Positions 35,317 through 36,975 of a stretch of 64,000 nt of DNA are shown here, piece by piece (position 1 is the first letter of the stretch; every line of letters begins with the position of its first letter). This DNA comes from Octopus vulgaris (lineage: Eukaryota). The stretch covers positions 62,868,001 through 62,932,000 of the forward strand of contig OX597818.1 of NCBI GenBank assembly GCA_951406725.2, read 5' to 3'. A program made the translations under genes and the position numbers. The notes under the pieces are model-generated. The model saw only the letters and a list, made by a program, of their open reading frames with translations. It searched no databases and was not told where the DNA came from.

Positions 35317-35528
35317 ACGGGAAGCTTTATGAAAATAAACAAAAGACGAAGGCAGGTGGAAAACAAACGAACAATTGTATTAGTATGGCGCTCAGGAAAT
35401 ATAAATAAAACAAGTCTTTAACGTTTCGAGCGTACGCTCTTCAACAGAAAGATACACAGAGCGAGAAAAACACAGAAAGAAGGAGAGAAAGAAAATGCGT
35501 GCAGTAGCTAACGAATCAACATGGCGAT
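35317..35528 (-). mobile_element. TA-embedded element with HHR family 2
   Basis: HHR 35415-35452: TCTTT-CTGTTGA-a-GAGC-gtac-GCTC-GAAACGTT-AAAGA; flanked by (TA)n; near-identical to 36405-36615. Confidence 0.8.
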
Positions 35529-36404
35529 ATATATACATATATATATATATATATATATACATATATATATATATATATATATGCATTAGGTCAACTCCAG
35601 TGATTTACCGTTATATATTTTATCTGCCATGTTTCACAGGTGTTGCTACGGTAGCGAGACTTGTCCACGAAAATACAAAGAGAATAAAGAGACAACTACT
35701 TCCGATGCTGTGTGTGAATTTATATTGACGTCGTTTCATGCATTCTCTTACTTCAGATTAATTGATGCAAGTCTGACAAAGTCACAATTATCAGTGATAC
35801 ACAACGAGTACACAATTCTGACGACAAATGGCAAGACAACGGGCACTGTGAATTTTAATCGCTAAATACTTCAGCAGCGATTGGTAAGTCACTCCTAGAA
35901 TTCGGCATTGAACTATTCGCCATAGTTATCTCGTACACACACATGCACACATAGAGACTCACACAAAGGCACATAAATAAACACATACACACATACAATC
36001 AATTAACCTCCAGAGAAGGAGTAGTTCTCTCCCCTGCTTCTAATAATAACAATCTCCAATTAGCTCCATTTAGACTTAGTGGCCTACATCACAAACGAGC
36101 TTTCCCGCTACTGACATGGATTAAAAAATTCTCATGATAACATGAAATTAAAATATTTTCACTATTGTTTTAGTCAAGATTTGTATAATCGAAACCGGTT
36201 GTAAATAATTTATCTTTCAAAAATCTTTCTAATGAAAATTTCCCCTACATACATTTGAGTATGTGAGTGTATGTGAGCACGTGTGTAGTAGCATACGAGA
36301 TTGAGCATTCAGAGTGCATACGTATTAGTAAGAGTCACATATTATATATGTATATATAAATATATATATATATATATATATATATATATATATATATATA
36401 TATA

Positions 36405-36975
36405 ACGGGAAGCTTTATGAAAATAAACAAAAGACGAAGGCAGGTGGAAAACAAACGAACAATTGTATTAGTATGGCGCTCAGGAAATATAAATAAAACA
36501 AGTCTTTAACGTTTCGAGCCTACGCTCTTCAACAGAAAGATACACAGAGAGAGAAAAACACAGAAAGAAGGAGTGAAAAAAATGCGTGCAGTAGCTAACG
36601 AATCAACATGGCGATTTGATTTCGGCCAGAGGTCAAAGATCAAACATGAGATGCGAGAGCGAAATAAGGGGAGGAAAATGTGGGAAGCATGAAATGAATG
36701 TAAAAAAAGTGGTAATATAAGAGAAAATAAAAATACAACAAACGGGACAGTTTATGCGAACAAGTTCAAGGTTGAAAGTTCAAGGTGAGAAATGTGTAGA
36801 CGTCGTGGTATATTTTTTAAGGATTTCACATCAATGCAAAGTCACTCTGATCCGCGAAAGAGAGGTGCAGCCAATGGTAAGTATCCAAGAGGTAAAGAAA
36901 ATCCAAGGTAGAGGTAAGTGTTGATAGTGGTATTGGTAGAATATAGGATGAAAGTGAGACCACGTGAGCGCATAA
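36405..36975 (-). mobile_element. Longer copy of the TA-embedded HHR family 2 element
   Basis: Same 3' end as the 35317 copy and ~360 nt more 5' sequence; HHR 36503-36540; (TA)n on both sides. Confidence 0.8.

Follow-up and report, generated by a model that had tools for sequence, protein, structure and literature searches.

Hammerhead-like motifs in the window

The window (the whole 64-kb stretch of DNA analysed here) contains four hammerhead-like motifs (Table 1). Searching it with the pattern CTGNNGAAGAGCNNNNGCTCGAAA returned matches with C3 at 13447 (+), 35447 (-), 36535 (-) and 55228 (-), against a mean of 0.00 and a maximum of 0 in 100 shuffled versions of the window. The first three carry the core CUGUUGA and the fourth CUGACGA, just as an initial annotation of this DNA had described them. 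In the young motif, stem I is UCUUU/AAAGA and the core C3 U4 G5 U6 U7 G8 A9; an additional A comes next, followed by stem II (GAGC/GCUC) with a GUAG loop, by G12 A13 A14, by A15.1 C G U16.1 and by U17. Apart from position 6, the layout is that of the minimal type I hammerheads described for Penelope-like elements (PMC4209133), including a bulged base after A9 and a palindromic stem III. An Rfam scan of the window (E ≤ 1) gave no hammerhead family among the matches listed (150 of 164 rows), and its miRNA matches were dismissed as microsatellite artefacts.

Two of the motifs lie in young insertions, termed copy 1 and copy 2. The motif of copy 2, with the extra A after A9, stem II GAGC/GCUC, loop GUAG, the ACGU palindrome and U17, is identical to that of the full-length young elements described below; the motif of copy 1 has a private loop 2 change, GUAG to GUAC. 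The copies at 13442 and 55196 are older; their similarity to the young copies is 70-76%, and CpG-type changes have destroyed their ACGU palindrome. All of these elements had been thought to be embedded in (TA)n. This holds for the two young copies, which sit between (TA)n tracts, but not for the copy at 55196, which ends beside a (CA/GT)n tract.

Table 1. Coordinates of the family copies, their motifs and the flanking TA tracts within the window
Feature	Position	Strand	Detail
Older family copy, U6 core	13436..13562	+	C3 13447; palindrome decayed to AUGU
(TA)n tract, 3′ end of copy 1 (insertion target)	35186..35316	.	
Copy 1, 5′-truncated 3′ end of Neptune-type PLE	35317..35528	-	body nt 4278-4488
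Copy 1 motif, minimal type I hammerhead-like	35415..35452	-	C3 35447, U6 35444
Copy 1 predicted cut site	between 35420 and 35419	-	
(TA)n tract, 5′ end of copy 1	35527..35582	.	
(TA)n tract, 3′ end of copy 2	36339..36404	.	
Copy 2, 3′ part, the element's last 269 nt	36405..36673	-	body nt 4220-4488
Copy 2 motif, minimal type I hammerhead-like	36503..36540	-	C3 36535, U6 36532
Copy 2 predicted cut site	between 36508 and 36507	-	
Copy 2, 5′ part, the element's first 306 nt (5′ UTR)	36672..36977	-	
(TA)n tract, 5′ end of copy 2	36978..37013	.	
Old family copy, A6 core	55121..55284	-	C3 55228; palindrome decayed to ACAU

Several other features share the window. A canonical A6 minimal hammerhead (CUGAUGA; 7093-7140, +) with a 5-bp stem II and a long loop represents another very abundant family, which adjoins (AAT)n/(ATG)n tracts and accounts for most of the first 100 rows in one of the core-pattern searches described below. 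A solitary 5S rRNA-like sequence (40134-40252, +; 77.5 bits) beside (CA)n(AT)n is likely a retrocopy. Short tandem arrays of a related 176-185-nt unit occur at 27419-27790, 31315-31685, 49066-49610 and 61846-62306, and the same unit also flanks the locus L032. A 92-nt unit is present in about three tandem copies at 13866-14126, and a very long (ATG)n tract of ~780 copies occupies positions 1-2342.

The young copies derive from a Neptune-type Penelope-like element

Copies 1 and 2 (35317-35528 and 36405-36977) have a common 3′ end and match at 98% identity across 212 nt. Their different 5′ lengths had been attributed to truncation, and the shared 3′ end and the truncation of copy 1 stand. Copy 2, however, is internally deleted rather than less truncated, because body nt 1-306 of the element are joined to nt 4220-4488; the two halves meet over a 2-nt overlap, ~3.9 kb including the whole ORF is absent, and the 3′ part is 98.9% identical to the full-length copy L031. 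Of 30 other young copies, 4 break off at the same 5′ position as copy 1, where element and target have AT in common, and this recurrent truncation point (L278, L283, L284, L294 and window position 35528) yields 211-nt stubs. Neither window copy contains an ORF (tblastn was blank), and both are ordinary dead insertions.

Five internally deleted loci (L001-L005) have five different junctions, each joining the 5′ UTR (nt 264-321) to the 3′ end (nt 4190-4221), a clustering that is biased by their retrieval with the copy 2 junction as query. One of them, L003, is itself a partial tandem, and short forms of this kind may therefore be mobilised. Two other accounts of the window copies were rejected. 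Some PLEs have a spliceosomal intron in the pLTR or 5′ UTR; the copy 2 deletion is not a spliced intron, as it has no GT-AG ends and the five loci have five junctions. Nor do the copies form the short non-coding head-to-tail tandem units of a non-LTR retrozyme: (TA)n tracts and a further 756 nt of DNA lie between them, and the element from which they come is a coding one. At C1:1878305-1878476, two family stubs (L052/L053) lie inverted, 147 nt apart.

We searched the element's own genome (2.8 Gb) with a window copy and scored 40 of 616 candidates; near-identical matches carry the two halves of the query in swapped order. All ten full-length loci fetched are partial tandems, 98.0-99.5% identical to L031, in which a 5′-truncated copy of 0.7-1.4 kb is followed by a TATA junction, a full unit of 4475-4543 nt and then (TA)n. 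An upstream partial copy is likewise present in 25/25 loci L006-L030. This is the partial-tandem, pseudo-LTR (pLTR) arrangement that characterizes EN+ Penelope-like elements (PLEs). The 3′ ends of all 27 resolved young copies (three of 30 are unresolved) run into TA repeats, the kind of microsatellite insertion bias expected of Neptune elements, and all insertions share a fixed end point that lies 103 nt downstream of the predicted cut site.

An ORF of 1076-1078 aa (1078 aa in L031) is intact in five of the ten full-length loci; in the other five it breaks early, and these breaks may be real or assembly errors. Within the L031 ORF, Pfam places RVT_1 above the cut-off (E 1.3e-7) and GIY-YIG below it (E 0.0065), with the IY..YIG motif visible, and a single ORF combining RT and GIY-YIG is typical of EN+ PLEs. 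The linker CSRPRCRTC, found in 5/5 intact ORFs, conforms to the Cx2-5CxxC that separates RT from the C-terminal EN in Neptune elements. The intact ORFs also carry ~100 aa of Pro/Ser/Leu-rich, low-complexity tail after GIY-YIG, in frame in 5/5 (L031:5300-5612). Homologues of 40-64% identity occur in records of other animals, which bear no clade names. With a 260-aa RT piece as query, all 147 scored genomic matches were 99-100% identical and stop-free, which indicates that the family was active very recently.

The linker and domain spacing were compared by eye with Neptune and Nematis rows. As in the Neptune EN+ PLEs described by Craig et al. (2021, PMC8557442), a single ORF holds RT and then a C-terminal GIY-YIG, a Cx4CxxC linker precedes a spacer of ~25 aa, and partial tandems forming pLTRs accompany 5′ truncation and microsatellite targeting; unlike the elements presented there, this one has a non-canonical hammerhead core and the low-complexity C-terminal extension (PMC8557442). 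Placed by motif and domain order, as judged by eye, the ~4.5-kb element is a Neptune-type PLE. The partial tandems and TA-flanked 3′ ends bear out the earlier proposal that the window copies are pseudo-LTR or 3′ PLE fragments inserted at (TA)n, and the predicted RT/GIY-YIG ORF to the 5′ side was duly found in the full-length elements.

U6 is fixed in the lineage and derived

Position 6 is U in 20/20 motifs of the ten full-length loci, all of which read CUGUUGA. An exact pattern with positions 6 and 7 left free matched the genome 18,333 times, with A6 in 226 matches and no match for the backwards control. To avoid selection on the core, we also searched with a pattern that tied stem I to a downstream motif; of its 12,203 matches, the first 100, which lie within the opening 20 Mb of contig C1, made up a second set. 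Here, position 6 is U in 98 copies, G in 2 and A in 0; position 7 is U in 48, A in 25, C in 17 and G in 10; position 17 is A in 70, U in 28, C in 1 and G in 1; and the remaining core positions show 95-100% consensus. Compared with the canonical core (C3 U4 G5 A6 N7 G8 A9), the family departs at position 6 and fits at the other six, and G12 A13 A14, A15.1-U16.1 and H17 are each present in 95-100 of the 100 copies. The U6 core is thus a propagating one, as first suggested. The idea of two competing core variants fails, since U6 is the fixed state of the lineage, and the lone CUGACGA copy of the window belongs to the oldest part of the lineage.

In the older subfamily, U6 was found in 26 and A6 in 3 of the first 30 of 212 matches, and A6 in 9 of the first 100 rows when counted by eye. 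A separate old A6 subfamily, suggested by a tree, did not hold up as a whole subfamily, because flank-selected old copies are mostly U6 (26/30). The A6 copies within younger subfamilies look like back-mutations, because their flanks and position 7 match those of U6 neighbors. We also considered whether U6 might be a hotspot or a recurrent state elsewhere, and rejected this: U6-core matches with other stems number 157, versus 16,406 A6-core matches, and many of the 157 are single mutants of the 7099-type A6 family or of the present family. As A6U occurs only as scattered mutants in another canonical family, position 6 is no mutational hotspot. The motif is present in contigs of six sequencing runs (organism codes A-E); in the contigs of code D it is very abundant, with position 17 mostly C (the classical GUC site). 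No RNA record was listed in a look-up for expression.

A sister family (5,075 exact matches), which shares stem II and a homologous tail and has UYY as its loop, carries A6 in 96 and U6 in 0 of its first 100 rows. Sister A6 families at L318-L337 (C1) share this stem II with UCC or UUU loops, and also end in TA repeats. To place the two lineages, a tree was built from 67 rows (8 sister, 30 old, 25 of the 100 flank-selected and 4 from the window), with positions 6 and 7 masked and the sister family as outgroup. The bootstrap had not fully settled; the sister family separates at 100/100, the four A6 rows of the lineage, window 55228 among them, group at its base without resolution, and none occurs in the ladder of younger subfamilies, which spans ~0.6 changes per column in total. 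The sister family keeps A6 and the sampled A6 copies are basal, and on these sequence comparisons U6 is therefore the derived state of the lineage.

The rest of the motif is conserved

The stems of the motif are retained across the family, as the PLE reading had supposed. Stem I pairs 1-4 are formed in 29, 30, 30 and 24 of 30 copies that were not selected on stem I, stem II pairs are intact in 94-99/100, and the ACGU palindrome is in the majority, so that stems I and II, the bulge after A9 and the palindromic stem III all correspond to a PLE minimal hammerhead. Pair 4 of stem I is C-G in the U6 family, and G-U, G-C or A-U in the sister family (15/15 paired), which makes it a compensated pair between the two families. 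Stem II and loop 2 are invariant within the U6 lineage, inside which no covariation was found. Loop 2 reads UYY in the A6 sister versus GUAG in the U6 lineage.

We then compared the motif with its surroundings. We grouped 130 copies by their 3′ flanks and took the majority sequences of six clusters, which hold 79 copies (the other 51, in smaller clusters, were omitted). These majorities differ at 2/28 motif positions, namely 7 and 17, versus 17/47 flank columns (Fisher p 0.006). The next clustering threshold gave 2/28 versus 15/47 (p 0.02). With looser clustering, 4-copy clusters add one to three further motif differences; at 0.12, where two such clusters enter, the majorities also differ at L2.1, 11.3 and G12. 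The positions that changed across subfamilies, 7 and 17, are the free positions of a hammerhead, and no subfamily majority has G17. A motif YGAGC, 10-35 nt after stem I (36470-36485, -, in the window), is kept in 90/100 family, 16/30 old and 16/20 sister copies. Its sequence could allow pairing with the GCUCG that stem II and G12 make up, giving an alternative, inactivating fold; no covariation was seen.

These data make it very improbable that the motif is a relic without function, in which A6U simply hitchhiked in one master copy. The keeping of any single base over the 67-row tree would be unsurprising (about even odds), and catalysis is dispensable in vitro in another PLE (PMC11167929), but 26/28 motif positions are unchanged among subfamily majorities where about a third of flank columns changed, and stem II is common to the distant sister family.

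Cleavage, templates and the possible roles of a U6 motif

Of the young copies, 29/30 cross the predicted cut site and none starts there, the set having been chosen by a motif downstream of the cut; 24/25 upstream partial copies also cross it. Because nearly all copies do so, their templates were uncut or re-ligated RNA, in agreement with the Poseidon element PAc, for which uncut RNA is described as the main substrate (PMC11167929). This is not proof that U6 impairs cleavage, because a normal PLE hammerhead would leave such templates too. Within the motif, 34 loci (counted by eye among the first 100 of 530 rows) have a 5′ end joined to (TA)n; it falls on the cut site in 6 of them and on the TA of loop 2 in 5. 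This TA offers the same overlap as the cut site, and 5′ ends are thus in no excess at the cut beyond microhomology, a distribution that leaves room for some cleavage at the predicted site.

Drawing on Penelope biology, we propose that the tandem locus is transcribed, and that the element protein would nick (TA)n DNA and reverse-transcribe from a fixed internal start, running through the uncut or re-ligated hammerhead. Where reverse transcription stopped early, a stub such as copy 1 would result; copy 2 would stem from a jump between templates or from a subsequent deletion. As to U6 itself, A6U would remove core contacts and, as predicted by folding of real copies, let U4-G5-U6 pair with A15.1-C15.2-G16.2, closing the junction into a hairpin. 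The predicted probability of this pairing is 0.98 with U7, 0.81 with A7, 0.51 with C7 and 0.34-0.49 with G7, whereas it is 0.00 with A6. The U6 RNA would then be mostly uncut, cleaving slowly or with the help of dimerisation, the element protein or Mn2+. In self-dimer folding, the lowest-energy form was not a catalytic dimer, which such programs are not expected to find.

Changes at position 6 have a precedent. The initial annotation held A6 to be invariant in hammerheads, yet a natural A6C hammerhead with low activity, under 0.1 per min, has been published from the phage Bcep176 (Perreault 2011, PMC3088659). When tested it was slow in Mg2+ and better in Mn2+ (PMC3088659; Naghdi 2020, PMC7151607), with activity rescued by Mn2+ or high Mg2+ (PMC7151607). 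It resembles the present motif in being a natural change of position 6, and differs in having C rather than U and in being one phage sequence, as reported there, rather than a lineage of >18,000 copies. In a mutational scan of another hammerhead, CUGA-turn mutants were low except for a C3-G8 swap (PMC9901934), and by analogy U6 may be effectively dead.

On balance we lean towards a strongly slowed hammerhead, still kept by selection, as the probable nature of the U6 motif in this young element, whose spread would not depend on its cutting. The conservation of stems and core fits a non-catalytic hairpin about as well, since N7 and H17 would also be unpaired or loosely paired there, and the invariance of stem II and loop 2 exceeds catalytic need. 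That the RNA instead cleaves at normal PLE rates, with tertiary contacts between the GUAG loop 2 and the bulged stem I, dimerisation or the ORF protein offsetting U6, seems improbable to us. It would accommodate the switch of loop 2 from UYY (A6 sister) to GUAG (U6 lineage) and the retention of all other core letters, and uncut templates do not discriminate against it, as normal PLE hammerheads are slow and protein-assisted; but the published position 6 changes lower activity strongly in Mg2+ (PMC3088659; PMC7151607), and 5′ ends at the cut site are no commoner than at the control TA overlap (6 vs 5 of 34).

The main rival reading, rather unlikely but possible, is that A6U ended catalysis and that the motif was kept as a rod-like RNA bound by the element protein, comprising stem I, the U4-G5-U6/A15.1-C15.2-G16.2 pairs, tandem G-A pairs and stem II. 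The predicted U6-A15.1 pairing in young copies (0.98, versus 0.00 with A6) points this way, as do the invariant stem II and loop 2, the failure of younger subfamilies ever to return to A6 over ~0.6 changes per column while position 7 changed repeatedly, and, again, the in vitro dispensability of catalysis in another PLE (PMC11167929). Against it, the hairpin is strong in U7 copies and weak in those with G7 or C7 (0.34-0.51), and in about half of all copies position 7 is A, C or G, for which a weaker hairpin is predicted. The family has also retained C3, U16.1, which would be mismatched in the hairpin, and a residue other than G at 17.

Relationship to known hammerheads

PLE minimal hammerheads and Neptune elements are already known. 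The minimal type I hammerheads (min-HHRs) described in the pLTRs of metazoan PLEs by Cervera and De la Peña (2014, PMC4209133) share with the present motif a short stem I (4-5 bp), an extra nucleotide between 9 and 10.1, G10.1-C11.1, a palindromic 15.2-16.2 without loop 3 and a NUH site, as well as occurrence in both terminal repeats and in many solo copies; they have A6 where this family has U6. In Fig. S3 of that work, A6 is present in all 44 alignment rows examined, which had been selected with a descriptor that included the core, and the core variant it reports is U3-A8 (PMC4209133). The Schistosoma motifs shown there have a stem II of 7-8 bp, unlike the 4 bp here (PMC4209133).

The hammerhead of PAc (Frangieh et al. 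2024, PMC11167929) likewise lies upstream of an internal RT start, in an element with AT-rich targets and uncut RNA as the main template; it keeps C3 and G8, its cleavage is protein-assisted, and it belongs to a different clade. The same study reports that a hammerhead from a lizard PLE needs protein to cleave, and that its catalytic mutants remain competent for insertion in vitro (PMC11167929).

Hammerhead searches that rely on CUGANGA miss a very abundant motif class. The collection of Lunse et al. 2017, which reportedly holds ~150,000 PLE hammerhead variants, may contain a natural A6U or CUGUNGA hammerhead. None was found in the literature and supplements searched, including passages of PMC11014351, PMC6765202 and bioRxiv 10.64898/2026.07.22.740005.

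PLE hammerheads cleave weakly, and cleavage proved dispensable in an in vitro system, which raises the question of why PLEs keep them. Here, a core change that should impair catalysis has been fixed in a lineage with >18,000 copies, a ladder of subfamilies and intact ORFs. The sister A6 families are natural controls for cleavage tests, and with them the question becomes directly testable with natural sequences. We tentatively raise, as an idea that is possible though on the unlikely side, that an active lineage switched its hammerhead to another job, the A6U-zipped hairpin serving as a switch that is recognized or unlocked by protein. If true, this would be a natural example of exaptation, in which a ribozyme became a non-catalytic or conditional element and its ancestral A6 form persisted elsewhere in the same genome, in a sister family.
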